A model generated the notes under the pieces. The model worked only from the letters and a program-made list of their open reading frames with translations. It was not told the origin of the DNA and searched no databases. Both the position numbers and the translations under genes were made by a program. A stretch of 39,161 bases of DNA. It comes from a virus. Its lineage: Duplodnaviria > Heunggongvirae > Uroviricota > Caudoviricetes. Below are positions 2,898 to 9,609 of the stretch, piece after piece; position 1 is the first letter of the stretch, and each line of letters begins with the position of its first letter. Location of the stretch: the IMG/VR virus record IMGVR_UViG_2706794670_000014. One strand, 5' to 3'.

Positions 2898-2903
2898 TCC
2901 TGC

Positions 2904-4958
2904 TTACGCGTTATTCACTTCCACCACGATACTGTCAATCAGTACCGGGTAAGTCGCATTTTTAGTGATATCGGTCACGCGCAACTTGTCTGCCGTAAAC
3001 GTGCCGACCGGAGACTGCGACAGCATGAATGGTGTCCCGTCCTTACCATCAATGACCGGCGTCACCTCAATACTGTTGTTACCGGCAAAACGGAAGCCCA
3101 GCGTATGCCATTCGTTATTAAATGCGCCGAATGACCCCAGCTTCGTGTTCTGCGCCGTGTTTCCTTTGTGATACATCACGTTAAGGTCTGTGGCATCGCT
3201 CTGTACGTAGAACGATGCCAGCAGGTTATGACCGGCATTTCCTTCCAGAGTAACCCCTTGCGGCAGGGCAGAAACCGGCCAGTACAGCGCCAGTGCGTAC
3301 TGATTAGCCGTAAGCGCGCCATCGAGTTTAAAACGACAACTGACAAGACCACCTTTACCCAGCAGGTCCGCACCATTACCAGCATCATGCTCAAGGTACC
3401 AGGGGGCTCTTCCTGTTTCCTTGGTCAGTTTCATTGCCTTACCCCCGCTGGCTCCGGCATCATCCACGATTTGAGCCTTGCCACCTCCGGCAGCCCAACC
3501 CTGTGGTGTCAACCGTCCTTCAGACTCAGATGCCCGGTAAGCAAATAGCGTACTCATCGTCGTGGTGTCTGCGGGTGGCGTGGACGGTTTTGATGGTGTA
3601 TCAGGTGACGGCTTCTCATCCGGTGGTGTCACGGTCTGCCCACGCATCAGTTCAGCCGTGCGCCCTGCATGGAGCATAATAGCTGAGGCCAGACGGTCTG
3701 AAATGACGCCCCTGCGTGCCCATGAGCTGAAATGGCTGTCACGCTGTGTCGAAACAAAACTGCCCTGGGTTCGGGATGCTGCACCGTAATACCCGACAGC
3801 CACAATATCCGGGTCTTCCGCCGGAGCATTCGTTGGCGTGCTCTGTCCATTCTCATCCGTCAGGAACGGTACAAAGAAAATTTTCTGTGCTTCCTTGCCT
3901 TTGTAGCCACCGTATACTGCCTCATATTTATCGGTGCCAGCGTTTTTCCAGTAATACGTGGTATCACCGCAAATCCACGGCACCGTGGTGGCATTTCCAC
4001 TCACGCACTGCGCAGCAAGCGGAGCCAGGTCAGTTCTGAACTGCTGAACCATGGCCGTGAATAAACTATTATGCTGCTGGCTTCCTGAGGCAAGGTCTGC
4101 CTCTCCCTGCATCCAGACCACAGCCAGAAGTTTGTTTTTCGGGTTTTTCGCCAGCGCGACTTTGGTGCGGCTTACCAGGTCCTGATACAGAGGTTTACCG
4201 GCCCCCCAGCGTGAAGAATCAGCGGAAGCACCGCTGGCCTCACTGAATGAGCCGTCGGCTCCAGTGGTGAATGCTGACCCGCCACGACAACAGGGCACCA
4301 GAAGTATCCCGGCATTCTGTGGGATATAGGGAAGCAGTTTTTTGGCAATATGCAACCCCTGACCGACAGTCCCGTACTGGCCTTTTGCCAGATCAGCTTT
4401 CGGGTGGTTTATCCCGCTCATATCCTGAACATCATGCAGGCAGTGGTCTGCCGGAATGATGTCGTTGTATGTACACGACGTACCGTTGGGCGTTACCGTA
4501 CTGCGGCGTGCCAGTTGCTTAATGCGTGGGTCCGGGCGGTCAAACGAATCCGGTAACGGCAGCCCCTCGCCGTAGGCCATGCCATTTGACTGACCCGCGA
4601 GAATGACAACAAAGTAATATTCCGGCTCTGAACTGCTGCCATTCGTGCTACCGGAAGGCCCGGCGTTATCCGGTGCATTCCAGTCGGAGGGCGTGAGCGT
4701 TCCGGCCACGTCAGATGTGATTGGAATGATGCCAGTCACGCCTGAACTGGTGATTTCTGCACTGGGATTACCGGATACCGGCATTACCCATAATGGCTCT
4801 TTCGTGCTGAAGCGGATCACGCAGTCTGCGAAGGTGATCCCCCCTTTATTACCCGAAGGGCGGAAAGGGCTTTCAATAAATGCCACCGTGCCACCGGCAA
4901 CCTTGACTGAAAACTCTCCGGGCATGGCGGAGAGCATTTTCCACTTGGAGTCTGACAT
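2904..4958 (-). CDS. 684-aa protein with a sialate O-acetylesterase (SASA / SGNH hydrolase) domain, resembling prophage NanS-p-type esterases; likely cargo
   Basis: Conserved blocks VVILAGQSNGMAYGEG and VVWMQGEADLA match the catalytic-serine and second signature blocks of the SASA family. Long N- and C-terminal extensions. Sits between gin and com-mom, where Mu has no gene. Confidence 0.65.
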   Translation of the reverse strand: MSDSKWKMLSAMPGEFSVKVAGGTVAFIESPFRPSGNKGGITFADCVIRFSTKEPLWVMPVSGNPSAEITSSGVTGIIPITSDVAGTLTPSDWNAPDNAGPSGSTNGSSSEPEYYFVVILAGQSNGMAYGEGLPLPDSFDRPDPRIKQLARRSTVTPNGTSCTYNDIIPADHCLHDVQDMSGINHPKADLAKGQYGTVGQGLHIAKKLLPYIPQNAGILLVPCCRGGSAFTTGADGSFSEASGASADSSRWGAGKPLYQDLVSRTKVALAKNPKNKLLAVVWMQGEADLASGSQQHNSLFTAMVQQFRTDLAPLAAQCVSGNATTVPWICGDTTYYWKNAGTDKYEAVYGGYKGKEAQKIFFVPFLTDENGQSTPTNAPAEDPDIVAVGYYGAASRTQGSFVSTQRDSHFSSWARRGVISDRLASAIMLHAGRTAELMRGQTVTPPDEKPSPDTPSKPSTPPADTTTMSTLFAYRASESEGRLTPQGWAAGGGKAQIVDDAGASGGKAMKLTKETGRAPWYLEHDAGNGADLLGKGGLVSCRFKLDGALTANQYALALYWPVSALPQGVTLEGNAGHNLLASFYVQSDATDLNVMYHKGNTAQNTKLGSFGAFNNEWHTLGFRFAGNNSIEVTPVIDGKDGTPFMLSQSPVGTFTADKLRVTDITKNATYPVLIDSIVVEVNNA

Positions 4959-5032
4959 CGTCTTTTCTGCCTGTTTCTGAATTAAACAGAGTCAGAATAG
5001 CGACCGCTGAAAAATATGTGTTTTGCGGAAAT

Positions 5033-5063
5033 TCAAAAAAGCGTCACGGTACTTTTGGTGACG
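5033..5063 (-). terminator. Rho-independent terminator at the 3' end of gin
   Basis: On the minus strand: stem CGTCAC / GTGACG with a 10-nt loop, followed by CTTTTTTG. Confidence 0.55.
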
Positions 5064-5616
5064 GAGCTGGTGAGGCAGGAAAATAACGATAAAGGGTGGA
5101 AAGGCCAATATCAAATATCAGTGCGATTTGTTTACGGGACTCGCCATTAGCCAGCAAACGGGCGATTTGCTCCCGCTCTTTCTCTGTCAGTTTCTGAGGT
5201 CTGCCGCCATGACGCCCCTGAGCACGGGCAGCAGCAAGACCCGCGCGTGTACGTTCAATAATGAGTTCCCGCTCCATTTCCGCCAGCGCGCCCATTATAT
5301 GGAAAAAGAAACGTCCCATGGGAGTGGATGTATCAATATTGTCCGTAATGCTGCGGAAGTTAACGCCGCGTTGCCGGAGTTCTTCTGTTAAAAGGACAAG
5401 GTGCTGCATACTGCGTCCAAGGCGATCCAGTTTCCAGACCAGCAGGGTATCCCCTGGCCGGAGTCGCTTTAATGCGCGTTTAAGTCCGGGACGCTCCCTT
5501 GTCTTACCGCTTATTCTGTCTTCGAAAAACAGCTCACATCCTGCACATTCCAGCGCATTTCTTTGTAGCGCCGTATTCTGGTCATTTGTTGACACCCTGA
5601 TATACCCAATCAGCAT
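5044..5616 (-). CDS. gin: Serine DNA invertase of the Gin/Hin/Pin family
   Basis: N-terminus MLIGYIRVSTNDQ with the catalytic serine context, resolvase-like core and a C-terminal HTH. Adjacent to the tail-fibre invertible segment. Confidence 0.9.
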   Translation of the reverse strand: MLIGYIRVSTNDQNTALQRNALECAGCELFFEDRISGKTRERPGLKRALKRLRPGDTLLVWKLDRLGRSMQHLVLLTEELRQRGVNFRSITDNIDTSTPMGRFFFHIMGALAEMERELIIERTRAGLAAARAQGRHGGRPQKLTEKEREQIARLLANGESRKQIALIFDIGLSTLYRYFPASPAPSPKVP

Positions 5617-5652
5617 ACGATTTCCTTATTATAAAAAGCCGGAATTGTCGCA

Positions 5653-6045
5653 TGAGGAATAAAACAGAGTTAATCCTGGCTTTCCTGAAAACCTCGGTTT
5701 ACGGGAAACGGTAAACAGGGCGGCGAATGCTCTGCCATCGGACGGCACCGCCGTTGCCGCGAATAGACTCGCCACCCCAAGAAATATTAATGGGGTTCCC
5801 TTTGACGGGACGCAGGACATAAACATCACTTCTGGTATAACACAGCAGGATGCGGATTCCCGATATATCCAGGATATCAGGCTGGGAGCAGAGAACAGGC
5901 AGGTAATGTACGGTGGGGCATATTACTCTGCGTACGGTAATGTTATGGCAGGCCTGCAGATTGACAGTAAAGTTGATGCTTCAAACGATTTTATAGCATT
6001 CAGACCCCTGCAAAAATTAGTCGGAGGTACATGGATTACGGTATC
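5653..6045 (+). CDS. Startless alternative tail-fibre C-terminal cassette (S'v-like), expressed only after inversion
   Basis: Open frame from the stop at 5650-5652 to TAA at 6043-6045 with no start codon near its 5' end. It encodes tail-fibre-like motifs (ANRLATPRNINGVPFDGTQDINITSG) and begins at the gix site. Confidence 0.6.
5672..5697. other. gix/hix-like recombination site (crossover site for the invertase)
   Basis: TTCCTGAAAACC-TC-GGTTTACGGGAA: two 12-bp inverted half-sites around a 2-bp core, very similar to the gix/hix consensus. Located at the start of the startless fibre cassette next to gin. Confidence 0.7.
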
Positions 6046-6106
6046 TCAGTTATAAATAGTCAGTAAATAATATATTTTAAAACAGATTTATTTCCAGGAG
6101 GATTTT

Positions 6107-6628
6107 ATGGAACTAAAAAATATAACCCGTTATTATCCTGAAAATATGCCATATGGTAATAATGTTCAGTATTTCCAGAGTGAAGATGGTAAGGATTTCT
6201 ACGAATCCCTGCCATTATTCACCAAAAAATATAAACTTTGCATAACACCTGACAGCGGCGTTATCTGCTCAATATCACAGGACGCCTCGGCGCTGTATCC
6301 TGCGGGGTTTTCTGTGGTTGAGGTCGATGAACTCCCTGAAGGCACGGATATTTCAGGAAACTGGAAGTTTGATAATGGCATAATCTCCCGTATTCCGGTT
6401 AACTACGCAAGAAAACTGGAAGCAATGCGCCAGTCATATCTTAATCAGGCATATGAAAAAATTAATGACTGGAGAACGGAGCTACAACTGGGCACCATCA
6501 GCGATGAAGACAGAGCAGCACTTACCCAATGGATGGCATACATCAGTCAGGTGAAGAAAATGGAACTACCCGCCATTAAAACAGAAGCTGAATTTAACGC
6601 CATTAAATGGCCTGAGCAGCCACAGTAA
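6107..6628 (+). CDS. Tail fibre assembly protein (Mu U / lambda Tfa family), on the alternate strand (U'-like)
   Basis: AGGAGG RBS. C-terminus ...LTQWMAYISQV...IKWPEQPQ matches the conserved Tfa C-terminal pattern. Directly follows the S'v cassette. Confidence 0.8.
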   Translation: MELKNITRYYPENMPYGNNVQYFQSEDGKDFYESLPLFTKKYKLCITPDSGVICSISQDASALYPAGFSVVEVDELPEGTDISGNWKFDNGIISRIPVNYARKLEAMRQSYLNQAYEKINDWRTELQLGTISDEDRAALTQWMAYISQVKKMELPAIKTEAEFNAIKWPEQPQ

Positions 6629-6631
6629 TAA

Positions 6632-6651
6632 AGAAGGCCGGAAGGCCTTCT
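6632..6651. terminator. Perfect hairpin between the convergent tail-fibre and tfa genes (putative terminator)
   Basis: AGAAGGCC-GGAA-GGCCTTCT: 8-bp perfect stem between stops at 6626-6628 and 6660-6662. Confidence 0.45.
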
Positions 6652-6659
6652 GAATATCA

Positions 6660-7535
6660 TTATATACTTGCAGCCGTCACCCATGCTCCATTTAACAGAT
6701 ACTGCAACGGCCGGTAATACACGCCGCCGACGTTATCTGCCGTATTCTTACCGACATCCTGTACTTTAATTCCGGTAAGAACATTGCCGCCCCCCAGATT
6801 CAGATCCCAGCTTTCCCATGTTCCGGGCATATGTGCGGTCACCGACCCCAGTCTTATGGCGGTTACTGTTCCTGATGAGATAGTGNNNNNNNNNNNNNNN
6901 NNNNNNNNNNNNNNNNNNNNNNNNNNNNNNNNNNNNNNNNNNNNNNNNNNNNNNNNNNNNNNNNNNNNNNNNNNNNNNNNNNNNNNNNNNNNNNNNNNNN
7001 NNNNNNNNNNNNNNNNNNNNNNNNNNNNNNNNNNNNNNNNNNNNNNNNNNNNNNNNNNNNNNNNNNNNNNNNNNNNNNNNNNNNNNNNNNNNNNNNNNNN
7101 NNNNNNNNNNNNNNNNNNNNNNNNNNNNNNNNNNNCGGCGAGATTCTGATCCTTCGCCAGGGCATTAACGTCAGCGGGACCAAGACTGTTTTTTGTGGCA
7201 AGCGTCCCCAGACCAAGATAACCACGGGCCAGACGCTGGGCCTCCGCACCGGCATCAGCAATTTCTTTCAGGTTATTTTTCCGGGAAAAGGCATTCGCAG
7301 CGATAATGGCTTTAATGGACAGCGTAAGCTGGTTTAACTGCGCCTTATCCGGCTGAATACTGGCTTCAGCCAGAATATTCAGCAGTTCGGCCTGGAGAAT
7401 ATTCAGCCAGTCCTGACCAATCCAGCTGATACCTTTTTGTCCGTCACCTTCGGTAAACCAGGTGGTGGTATTACTCTGCGCCGGTGCCAGCGCAGGCATA
7501 TTCGCCACGCCGGAATTATTATCAACATGAAACAT
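6660..7535 (-). CDS. Tail fibre protein (Mu S-like, constant plus currently joined variable part); middle masked by N
   Basis: Position after the baseplate genes. C-terminal segment resembles fibre receptor-binding tips. N-run 6886-7135 lies inside the gene. Confidence 0.65.
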   Translation of the reverse strand: MFHVDNNSGVANMPALAPAQSNTTTWFTEGDGQKGISWIGQDWLNILQAELLNILAEASIQPDKAQLNQLTLSIKAIIAANAFSRKNNLKEIADAGAEAQRLARGYLGLGTLATKNSLGPADVNALAKDQNLAXXXXXXXXXXXXXXXXXXXXXXXXXXXXXXXXXXXXXXXXXXXXXXXXXXXXXXXXXXXXXXXXXXXXXXXXXXXXXXXXXXXXTISSGTVTAIRLGSVTAHMPGTWESWDLNLGGGNVLTGIKVQDVGKNTADNVGGVYYRPLQYLLNGAWVTAASI

Positions 7536-8095
7536 TAAATAGTCTCCTCTTCATGGCTGTTTGCATAAACGTAAATAAACGTCTGCCATGCAGGCTTATA
7601 ACGGTTCAGAATACATTCCAGCGCACCGCCTTCATAAATACGCAGCGGCGTGAGAATATCATCCAGCACATTCATATTCCGGTAGCCGGTTTCACTGTTA
7701 ATCGTGACAATACTGACCCACTGCGAATCCGGTGAGGGCTGAATGTCAATCTGATAACCAAACTCCGCCGCAAACCGGATATAAAATTCACGGTTCAGCG
7801 AGGGCTTCATCCGGTATTTATTTCCGGCATAACGCTGTCGCTCCGTGAGGGTGGCTCCGGCCATATCACACTCGGGAAGCCCGAGATAACGCTCCCAGTC
7901 TTCCAGCAGCAGGCGCGACGTGTCAGGGAAACGCTCGGCAAGCAGCTGTTTACCCGTCCAGGATACACGCGCTGTCGAATGACTGAGGCCCAGACATAAT
8001 GATGCCAGTACGGATGACGGACGCTTGTCCCATGCCAGCCCGTCAGGCAGTAACTGCAACAGGGCGCGCTGATGCGGGGTCAGGGTTACAGCCAT
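7535..8095 (-). CDS. Tail protein (Mu gp48-like, DUF2313-type)
   Basis: Size and position between the baseplate J-like gene and the tail fibre. Confidence 0.55.
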   Translation of the reverse strand: MAVTLTPHQRALLQLLPDGLAWDKRPSSVLASLCLGLSHSTARVSWTGKQLLAERFPDTSRLLLEDWERYLGLPECDMAGATLTERQRYAGNKYRMKPSLNREFYIRFAAEFGYQIDIQPSPDSQWVSIVTINSETGYRNMNVLDDILTPLRIYEGGALECILNRYKPAWQTFIYVYANSHEEETI

Positions 8096-9172
8096 GTGAT
8101 TTCTCCTACCGTCAGCAGCTCACTGTCTCCCGCCTGAACTGACGTCAGCGGACTGCGCACTTCAAAATCCTCCAGATTTTTCACCCCTGCCACCGCCCGC
8201 CAGAAAGACGACGGCAGAACCAGACCGCCGGGCCGGGATTCGTTATACAACAGGTCGGTCAGCGCCTGTTTTACGGCCGCCTGATTCTCCGGTGTTTTCG
8301 GGATGATCCTGATGCTGAAGGGCACCGGCTTATTGGTCAGTTTAAACACGGTCACCGTCGGCCCCAGAGGCTGTCCGACAGGCTGGCCGGTCGCCGGATC
8401 ATCATGACTGCGGATATAATCCGCCACCCGCTGAACATCACCGTCACCGGGGAAAATATCCGGGTTATTATCCTGAACAAACGTTACCCCCACGCTGCCC
8501 GCCTGCGGCCATTCCGGGCGGCACCATGCCCGCGTCACGCCCGGCACTTCACGCGCCCAGCGTTCAAANNNNNNNNNNNNNNNNNNNNNNNNNNNNNNNN
8601 NNNNNNNNNNNNNNNNNNNNNNNNNNNNNNNNNNNNNNNNNNNNNNNNNNNNNNNNNNNNNNNNNNNNNNNNNNNNNNNNNNNNNNNNNNNNNNNNNNNN
8701 NNNNNNNNNNNNNNNNNNNNNNNNNNNNNNNNNNNNNNNNNNNNNNNNNNNNNNNNNNNNNNNNNNNNNNNNNNNNNNNNNNNNNNNNNNNNNNNNNNNN
8801 NNNNNNNNNNNNNNNNNNGGTGATACGGTAAACCACGCCATCACTTCGCTGGAGAAGCACACCTTCCTTGATCCCCGCATCCGTGGTCAGCATCAGCTGA
8901 ACCGGCCCGTCCCCCCGAGAGGCAGGCTTACGCATGACGCCCCAGAATGCACAGTGTTTCAGCAGTTCGGCTTCATCGGCTTCGGTCGGGATGATCTGAC
9001 GCGCAATCCAGGCCAGATGCTCATGCTCCTGAGCAGATAACCCTGCCTGAGCGTAAGCAATGGCATTCAGGGTGGTTTCATTCACACCCGGCTGCGAGCC
9101 GGGCAGGCGCTGGCTGATATCCTGCTGTGTCTGCGTGATTAACTGTGCCAGCGGTAAAGGCTGATAAGGCAT
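8086..9172 (-). CDS. Baseplate J-like protein (Mu gp47-like); middle masked by N
   Basis: The N- and C-terminal ORF pieces flank the N-run 8569-8818. Both resemble Baseplate_J family proteins. Confidence 0.6.
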
Positions 9173-9609
9173 TACTCCCCCTTAAGATCAGCATAAAAAA
9201 TCATGGGCCTCACTGAACCATCAGGCAGGGTTATGCGCACCGAAAGCGCCAGCCGCGCGTGTCCCACACGTTCTGCATGACAGACCACGGATGACGCCAC
9301 GCCATCCTGACTGAGCCAGCCCAGCGCCTCATCCGCGTAAGCACGGGCACGGCTTATCACCGAGGCCAGCGTTTTTTCCCGGCTGAGAAGCCACAGACGG
9401 GAGCCAATGGGGCGCGGGCGAAAACTGTCTCCCCACCATCCCCGGCGGTCGCGCGTACCGTCAGGGATTTCATCCGATGCCAGCGCCCGGCGGTCAGTAA
9501 ACAGCGAAATCAGAACGGCCGTCAGCAGACTGTCATCCGTCAGCAAGTCGGCACCGTTCAGTTGCAGCGAACCGCACCCCTGATCCCATACAATTGCAAT
9601 ATCAGCCAT
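9172..9609 (-). CDS. Baseplate protein (Mu gp46-like)
   Basis: Internal start MADIAIVWDQ... overlaps the end of the upstream gene. Position in the baseplate cluster. Confidence 0.5.
   Translation of the reverse strand: MADIAIVWDQGCGSLQLNGADLLTDDSLLTAVLISLFTDRRALASDEIPDGTRDRRGWWGDSFRPRPIGSRLWLLSREKTLASVISRARAYADEALGWLSQDGVASSVVCHAERVGHARLALSVRITLPDGSVRPMIFYADLKGE

Follow-up and report, generated by a model that had tools for sequence, protein, structure and literature searches.

We analysed a viral DNA stretch of 39,161 nucleotides (nt; IMG/VR record IMGVR_UViG_2706794670_000014), hereinafter referred to as the window; of these 39 kb, positions 2900-9200 are described here. The window is a Mu-like (Sp18-type) Escherichia coli prophage with a miniature G segment of ~1.3 kb, in which a Gin-type invertase recombines two inverted 26-bp sites, one by the invertase gene and the other inside the tail fibre gene. 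Depending on the orientation, the late tail operon expresses ~177 constant amino acids (aa) of the fibre joined to one or the other of two homologous tips of ~116-119 aa. The two tips share the segment with a single tail fibre assembly (chaperone) gene, tfa, and the tip expressed in the window is the chaperone-less one. The invertible switch itself and its single-tfa architecture are close to certain. As for how the switch works, we incline, if only modestly, towards a full model in which both tips are served by a generalist Tfa whose transcription does not depend on the late tail operon.

The elements of the switch were located as follows (window positions):

5044-5616, minus strand: Gin-family serine DNA invertase gene, 190 aa (Pfam Resolvase, 1.6e-51; HTH_7, 4.9e-15).
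5682-5707, plus strand: Gin-proximal crossover site (gix-like), 26 bp, TTCCTGAAAACC-TC-GGTTTACGGGAA, with the central TC at 5694-5695.
5687-5772 (86 nt, 93%) and 5786-5835 (50 nt, 84%), no strand: left arm of an inverted repeat, from a repeat search of the unmasked relative L001.
5696-6055, plus strand: silent, startless alternative tip Sv' (type B1), 119 codons from the crossover to the stop, frame open from 5663.
6056-6106, plus strand: AT-rich spacer of 51 nt with AGGAGG, 5' of tfa, read from the sequence.
6107-6628, plus strand: tfa, tail fibre assembly (chaperone) gene, 173 aa (Pfam Caudo_TAP, PF02413, 4.8e-19), with AGGAGG 7 nt upstream.
6632-6651, minus strand: GC-rich, terminator-like hairpin between two convergent stop codons, AGAAGGCCTTCCGGCCTTCT then TTATTACTGT, with the T-run on the fibre-gene strand.
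6660-7535, minus strand: expressed short tail fibre gene S, 291 codons with the mask (293 aa in unmasked relatives), convergent with tfa.
6886-7135, no strand: masked block of 250 N inside the fibre gene.
7535-8095, minus strand: baseplate wedge protein gene (Mu gp48/YmfQ family) directly upstream of S, from the annotation of an identical relative; the gene order is as in Mu.

The invertase was 74% identical to Mu Gin across 184 aa, and its N terminus (MLIGYIRVSTNDQ) lined up with that of Mu Gin. Identity to Mu gin over the initial 200 nt of the gene was 73-78%; in Din systems, a Fis-dependent enhancer lies in the 5' part of the invertase gene. The original prediction, made from the letters of the window alone, had placed a gix-like site at 5672-5697; such a site was present, but its real position is 10 nt further right (5682-5707). 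Its 19-nt core occurred once in the window when up to 3 mismatches were allowed and was matched in 0 of 100 dinucleotide-preserving shuffles. Compared with Mu gix (TTATCCAAAACC-TC-GGTTTACAGGAA), 5 of the 26 positions differed.

The partner site had been expected inside the fibre gene, within the run of N, and genomes with identical visible flanks have it there. Complete E. coli genomes with 100% identity to the visible part of 4900-8100 numbered five, and 17 genomes covered at least 80% of it. In the flank-identical genomes (e.g., JE86-ST05, locus L001), the masked stretch was 256 nt long, consisted entirely of fibre coding sequence and contained the inverted partner site TTCCCGTAAACC-GA-CGTTATCGATAA. 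Read as the reverse complement, the partner had the same central TC and the same inner half-site (GGTTTACGGGAA) as the visible site and differed from Mu gix at 4 of 26 positions. A search of L001 with Mu gix at up to 3 mismatches gave no match, because the two sites differ from it at 4 and 5 positions. The partner site lay at 8100-8125 of L001, equivalent to ~6993-7024 of the window; the masks do not keep the original length (runs of 250 N replace 256 nt at 6886-7135 and 246 nt at 8569-8818), so that this position is only approximate and any coordinate right of a mask is offset from that in the real genome. Within the masked part of the window's fibre gene, the sequence TTCCCGTAAACCGACGTTATCGATAA is expected.

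Extending inward from both sites was an inverted repeat in two parts, 86 nt (93%) and 50 nt (84%) long, with its arms at 6788-6873/8035-8120 and 6887-6936/7972-8021 of L001 (window position = L001 position - 1101). The left arm encodes the start common to both tips (GLRETVNRAANALPSDGTAVAANRLA..INGVPFDGTQDI), and the right arm, in the relatives, also fell within the masked block. As a separate observation, the genes for com, the DNA circularisation protein and the tape measure were flagged as frameshifted in the JE86-ST05 annotation, and this prophage copy may be defective.

In silico inversion of the 1,315 bp between the central dinucleotides brought the constant part into frame with the silent cassette and gave a fibre of 296 aa. 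This fused fibre was annotated as an intact coding sequence (WP_032184567), followed by tfa, in strain NCCP 13983, and the 293-aa form was intact in other genomes. When the computed inverted arrangement was used as a 2.3-kb query, it was matched in one piece at 99.7-99.9% in DLI.5a, TOE17, NCCP 13983, and FORC_043, and at 95.5% in a fifth genome; in genomes with the window's orientation, only the inverted middle matched (59% of the query). The exact inverted arrangement in four complete genomes indicates that the switch flips in nature. Both orientations were also present among 77 IMG/VR loci, and the orientation of the window (A) was the commoner one in assemblies. These data, together with the relationship of the invertase to Gin, the shared central dinucleotide of the inverted sites and the in-frame fusion, bear out the original prediction of a Gin-type invertible segment.

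Two further observations were made on the inversion. At least 11 IMG/VR contigs ended between fibre residues 169 and 224, that is, within the repeat, as assemblers do with mixed orientations. At both crossover sites, L031 and O157:H7 Sakai (L093, ~4200-4225) carried TT as the central dinucleotide, and all other loci carried TC; such a matched change is expected only if the two sites recombine with each other. A pairwise inversion was seen between FORC_029 and NCCP 13983, which were collinear in the flanks with a 1.35-kb middle inverted, the overlap at either end being the repeat. This pair was considered as a single clone and rejected as such (flanks only 99.5% identical), and it is a pairwise inversion, not a proof of flipping within a clone.

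The asymmetry of the segment was also as first described. A startless tip cassette and tfa, both on the plus strand, are convergent with the expressed fibre gene (open reading frames 5663-6055, 6107-6628, and 6660-7535). A tblastn search of the whole window with its own Tfa, the O157 Tfa, the Citrobacter braakii Tfa, and Mu U and U' found one tfa locus, with none 3' of the expressed tip, and the same search found one tfa per locus throughout the short-fibre lineage. As a positive control, the search picked up the two tfa genes each of Mu and of a canonical Mu-type prophage (L002, L005). A further tfa concealed in the mask, which would have contradicted the prediction, was ruled out: identical relatives have fibre coding sequence there, and a mask of 250 nt is too short for a gene of 520 nt.

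The lineage was found in ~4% of complete E. coli genomes (236-238 of 5,426), including O157:H7 Sakai. A scan of GTDB species with the fibre protein gave 8 loci only, among which C. braakii alone was informative. The layout was invariant: one tip (A) is convergent with tfa, and a more variable tip (B) lies upstream of tfa in the same orientation. The fibre gene of the window consists of the constant part of ~177 aa and the current tip Sv (type A1), with no chaperone gene 3' of A1. Across the lineage, we identified three A-tip variants (A1, A1b, and A2), three B types (B1 to B3), and two Tfa types (61% identical to each other), which occurred in mosaic combinations and combined freely. The alleles of the A tip were all open except that of L021, whose prophage also has a broken invertase. 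In the variable part of the A tip, the ratio of nonsynonymous to synonymous substitution rates (dN/dS) was 0.06-0.11 at dS values from 0.8 to more than 2, indicating strong purifying selection on an A tip that is functional and not a relic.

The two tips of the window were homologous to the last residue (34% identity, E 4e-15). Both matched P2 H-type and P1/P7 S-type fibre tips, and the A tip also matched SfMu S'; the identity of the A tip to the SfMu S', P1 S, and P2 H tips was 45-52%. The SfMu fibre protein ORF49 is >95% identical to Mu S' (PMC4406740). Where annotation was visible, a tfa gene was found directly 3' of such tips (Mu S-U, Mu S'-U', and C. braakii). In P2, H is followed by G, and fibres of the P2 H, P1/P7 S, and Mu S' types need their Tfa. 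By homology, the A tip falls into a tip class that is chaperone-assisted in Mu, P1, and P2.

The gene order could also be read in another way, in which folding of the A tip needs no phage chaperone and the B tip is the sole client of Tfa, so that inversion would toggle between an assisted (perhaps Tfa-capped) fibre and a bare one. No tfa occurs downstream of the A tip in any relative, and a hairpin with its T-run on the fibre strand closes the A-tip gene, as this alternative would have it. We nevertheless consider it unlikely, as the homologous tips of Mu S', P1 S, and P2 H are each followed by tfa and the A-like tip of C. braakii is followed by tfa directly.

The properties of Tfa itself also bear on this point. 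Tfa of the window matched Mu Tfa U (PDB 5yvq_B, E 4.2e-16) and scored 69.2 bits against PF02413 (cut-off, 22.1), and the N-terminal 191-198 aa of the fibre matched Mu S (PDB 5yvq_A, E 9e-46); by homology, Tfa is predicted to bind the fibre tip and to be needed for its folding. The first ~85 residues of Tfa were highly conserved, residues 1-60 being 72% identical even between the two Tfa types, and the C-terminal half diverged more than the N-terminal half. The N-terminal part is reportedly the fibre-binding domain in the Mu complex. The tips found alongside this conserved part were only 35-50% identical to one another. Since the fibre-binding half did not track the B tip type, a Tfa dedicated to the B tip is again disfavored. 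Among the informative pairs of 20 tfa alleles, dN/dS was 0.10-0.25. In an observation apart from these, the antisense strand of tfa (6107-6628) had one frame open for 67 codons in the Tfa type of the window and for 130 codons in the O157 type, which may be an effect of codon bias.

Locked derivatives of the switch were identified in 6 of the 5,426 complete genomes (CI5, M1, M3, M18, JE86-ST02, and S1-CAM-01-A) and in 7 IMG/VR loci (L019, L020, and L022-L026), with an A1 or A2 tip. One common deletion had taken most of the invertase gene and the B cassette, leaving an intact tfa permanently convergent with the A-tip fibre. With the invertase and the B cassette gone, the A tip is the only possible client of Tfa in these forms, and tfa was intact in all locked loci, which speaks against a tfa that serves the B tip only. 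At the deletion junction, a promoter-like ATGATA-17-TATAAT (10/12) was observed ~120 nt upstream of tfa; the three promoter-like hits in this junction were no more than in shuffles (3 vs. 2.3 ± 1.6).

The locked forms also bear on the proposal that the A orientation is an OFF or low-infectivity state, in which the fibre misfolds for want of Tfa and only the B orientation is productive. Gene order alone would allow for this, as the late operon and tfa run on opposite strands when the segment is in the A orientation. However, A tips were strongly conserved as proteins while their synonymous sites were saturated, A was the commoner orientation in assemblies, and the deletion derivatives were fixed in A, not B. 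Neither the selection on A tips nor the fixation of the locked forms in A fits easily with an OFF state, which we consider very improbable.

If one Tfa is to serve the A tip, tfa has to be expressed while it is antisense to the tail operon. The original prediction proposed that tfa has its own AGGAGG and an AT-rich upstream region that could act as a promoter; the AGGAGG was found, and an independent promoter, not visible as a sigma-70 consensus in the window, was supported indirectly, by the spacers and by array data from strain Sakai. In every single-tfa locus, the spacer between the B stop and tfa was 51-125 nt long, compared with 2 nt in Mu, and tfa had its own Shine-Dalgarno sequence. The spacers of the relatives were non-homologous and fell into three types. 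In one type, 0-18% of spacer positions differed, vs. 5-72% at the tfa four-fold sites of the same loci, and its last 44 nt were almost invariant. In some alleles, this conserved spacer (L020, 5936-5986; L019 and L022-L028) would add 17 codons in frame with tfa, encoding a hydrophobic extension (MAIVLFLFLSLIHMVMF); L040 and L050 have ATA in place of the upstream ATG, and the conservation of the spacer therefore looks non-coding. The C-site of Mu Pmom (TTATGCCCCAATAA) was not conserved in the Pmom region of the lineage and was therefore not usable as a probe.

Expression data were available for Sakai, whose reference assembly is in the A orientation, from 70-mer oligonucleotide arrays (Bergholz et al., 2007; PMC2241611; Table 2 and Additional file 2 therein). 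The log2 expression indices changed from 3 h to 5.5 h as follows (PMC2241611):

ECs4990, tfa: -1.08 to +1.31.
ECs4991, silent B cassette: -0.93 to +1.06.
ECs4989, fibre: -0.45 to +0.17.
ECs4986, baseplate: +1.52 to -0.44.
ECs4993, SASA/DUF6645: essentially flat, -0.35 to -0.43.

ECs4990 and ECs4991 went up together ~5-fold at entry into stationary phase and were listed together in Table 2 of that study (PMC2241611). This joint rise points to a single transcription unit of the silent cassette and tfa, distinct from the tail operon. ECs4961, the homologue of the Mu late activator C, rose one time point ahead of this pair, with an index of -0.84 at 4.6 h and +1.11 at 5 h, while the other late genes listed, ECs4967 and ECs4986, fell (PMC2241611). 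The unit of tfa and the B cassette could be either C-dependent or stationary-phase-dependent. That tfa is transcribed in Sakai, whose reference orientation is A, is a further point against an A tip that folds without a chaperone.

The transcription of tfa is also relevant to a possible supply of Tfa in trans, by which particles of the A orientation would use the chaperone of other prophages in the same cell. The Tfa of one phage can stand in for that of another, and several hosts contained more than one related prophage copy, with up to 8 matching places per genome. Even so, a phage that depended on such help would not keep its tip at a dN/dS of ~0.1 across many backgrounds, and its own tfa is transcribed and encodes a Tfa with a conserved fibre-binding half. 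We regard supply in trans as improbable.

In the model that we favor, the one Tfa would act as a generalist chaperone for both tips. The tfa transcript would begin in the silent B cassette or 5' of it, with no dependence on the late operon, so that Tfa would be produced in either orientation of the segment; with the segment in the B orientation, the late operon would read tfa as well.

Several points weigh against this model. The window's own partner site is masked and was deduced from relatives, and the link between Tfa and the A tip rests on sequence comparison. On the tfa strand, no sigma-70 match of at least 9/12 was found between the invertase gene and tfa in the window, no sigma-70 consensus promoter was found in the O157 type either, and no convincing motif was common to the three spacer types; the lack of a consensus tfa promoter would equally suit a tfa that serves the B tip only. 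The array data come from one study of an 85%-identical relative, in a culture of unknown orientation mix. The tfa alleles of locked forms were no closer to each other than to those of invertible forms; as they are not monophyletic, the intactness of tfa may reflect recombination and not selection in the locked state, and it was rejected as a proof of selection. In addition, the locked forms are rare (6 of 5,426 genomes), and their tfa could be a young remnant, as would be expected if the A tip needed no chaperone.

In the textbook view, invertible fibre segments serve phages in host-range bet-hedging, with each tip paired with its own chaperone. If one Tfa folds tips that are only 35-50% identical, the system would show what Tfa recognizes, and chaperone specificity can be tested directly with two tips and one Tfa from the same phage. 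If true, receptor-binding tips of myophages and tailocins could also be engineered on this compact, naturally occurring scaffold. A passage of PMC11915804, citing North and Davidson (2021), states that the Mu chaperone stays on the tip and binds the host surface. We entertain with reserve the idea that the switch here toggles a fibre with vs. without chaperone, which would make Tfa on the virion phase-variable, or that tfa is an autonomous unit, under growth-phase or late regulation, that feeds both fibres. Neither the single-chaperone design nor the locked derivatives were found described in a full-text literature search.

With regard to the neighboring genes, the late tail operon, which continues into the switch, has the gp48-type baseplate gene at its end, and baseplate genes of the Mu gp48, gp47, and gp46 types lie beyond the fibre gene. 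On the other side, com and mom were seen further left in the closest relative, and one more gene was identified next to the invertase gene:

2904-4958, minus strand: SASA-esterase/DUF6645 gene, 684 aa (SASA, 1.5e-13; C-terminal DUF6645, 7.4e-68).

This gene occupies the interval between the invertase and com/mom, where Mu has nothing, and its product was 53% to 100% identical among relatives. Judging from its domains, the 684-aa protein may be virion-associated or a NanS-p-like esterase.

Among known systems, the C segment of P1 with Cin, the C segment of P7, and the P segment of e14 with Pin are likewise serine-invertase switches of fibre C-termini. The B tip matched P7 Sv' at 36% across 97% of its length, and the A tip matched the P1 fibre at 52%. 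The P1, P7, and e14 segments have paired tip-plus-tfa cassettes on both sides.

The Mu-like prophage of C. braakii (L006/L059, 6001-11500) resembled the window in the constant fibre part (74% identical), a Gin-type invertase, and a single 229-aa tfa on the side of the alternative cassette, with the expressed fibre ending at a hairpin and no tfa after it. It differed in its long fibre (472 aa), which is followed by a perfect 17-bp hairpin, and in that its A-like tip is the one linked to tfa. Three gix-like sites were found, which makes a multi-cassette arrangement likely. Beyond its invertase, C. braakii also has a collagen-like, 320-aa fibre gene with GDKGDTG repeats and a tfa-like hit.

Prophage Sp18 of Sakai (ECs_4989 to ECs_4992) has the same architecture, with an A-tip fibre without chaperone, a convergent tfa, a partial B tip, and an invertase, and the region was ~85% identical to the window at the DNA level. 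The alleles were different (tips ~47-58% identical, Tfa 61%), and the central dinucleotide is TT in Sp18 and TC here. The Sp18 invertible region was recorded in 2009, with genes "distinct from those of Mu" (Asadulghani et al.; PMC2669165). In the same study, Sp18 DNA was packaged and particles were seen, and the single chaperone was not discussed (PMC2669165).

The closest comparison is with the Mu G segment and Gin. The gene order is shared (gp47, gp48, S, invertible segment, invertase, com, and mom), as are the central TC and inner half-site of gix. The constant fibre part was homologous to that of Mu S (59% across 109 aa), and the junction peptide GL.ETVN.A was conserved. Mu differs in its segment of ~3 kb with Sv-U and U'-S'v, i.e., a chaperone per tip (PMC11915804), compared with ~1.3 kb and one tfa here. 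The Mu fibre is also longer (504 aa vs. 293-296 aa), the distance from tip to tfa is shorter (2 nt from S to U vs. 51 nt), and SASA/DUF6645, DUF1378, and DUF826 genes lie between the invertase and com here. Inversion has been seen by sequencing in the Mu prophage of enteropathogenic E. coli (PMC4272514) and in a canonical Mu-type prophage (PMC9881135). The window has resolvase and helix-turn-helix domains in its invertase, inverted sites with an identical dinucleotide (the partner from relatives), and both orientations among its relatives, as in Din switches; alternative 3' parts are fused in frame as in the G segment, without its two tip-plus-chaperone cassettes. Judged by its invertase, its crossover sites, the order of genes, and the N terminus of the fibre, the switch belongs to the Gin-type switches and is closely related to the Mu G segment.

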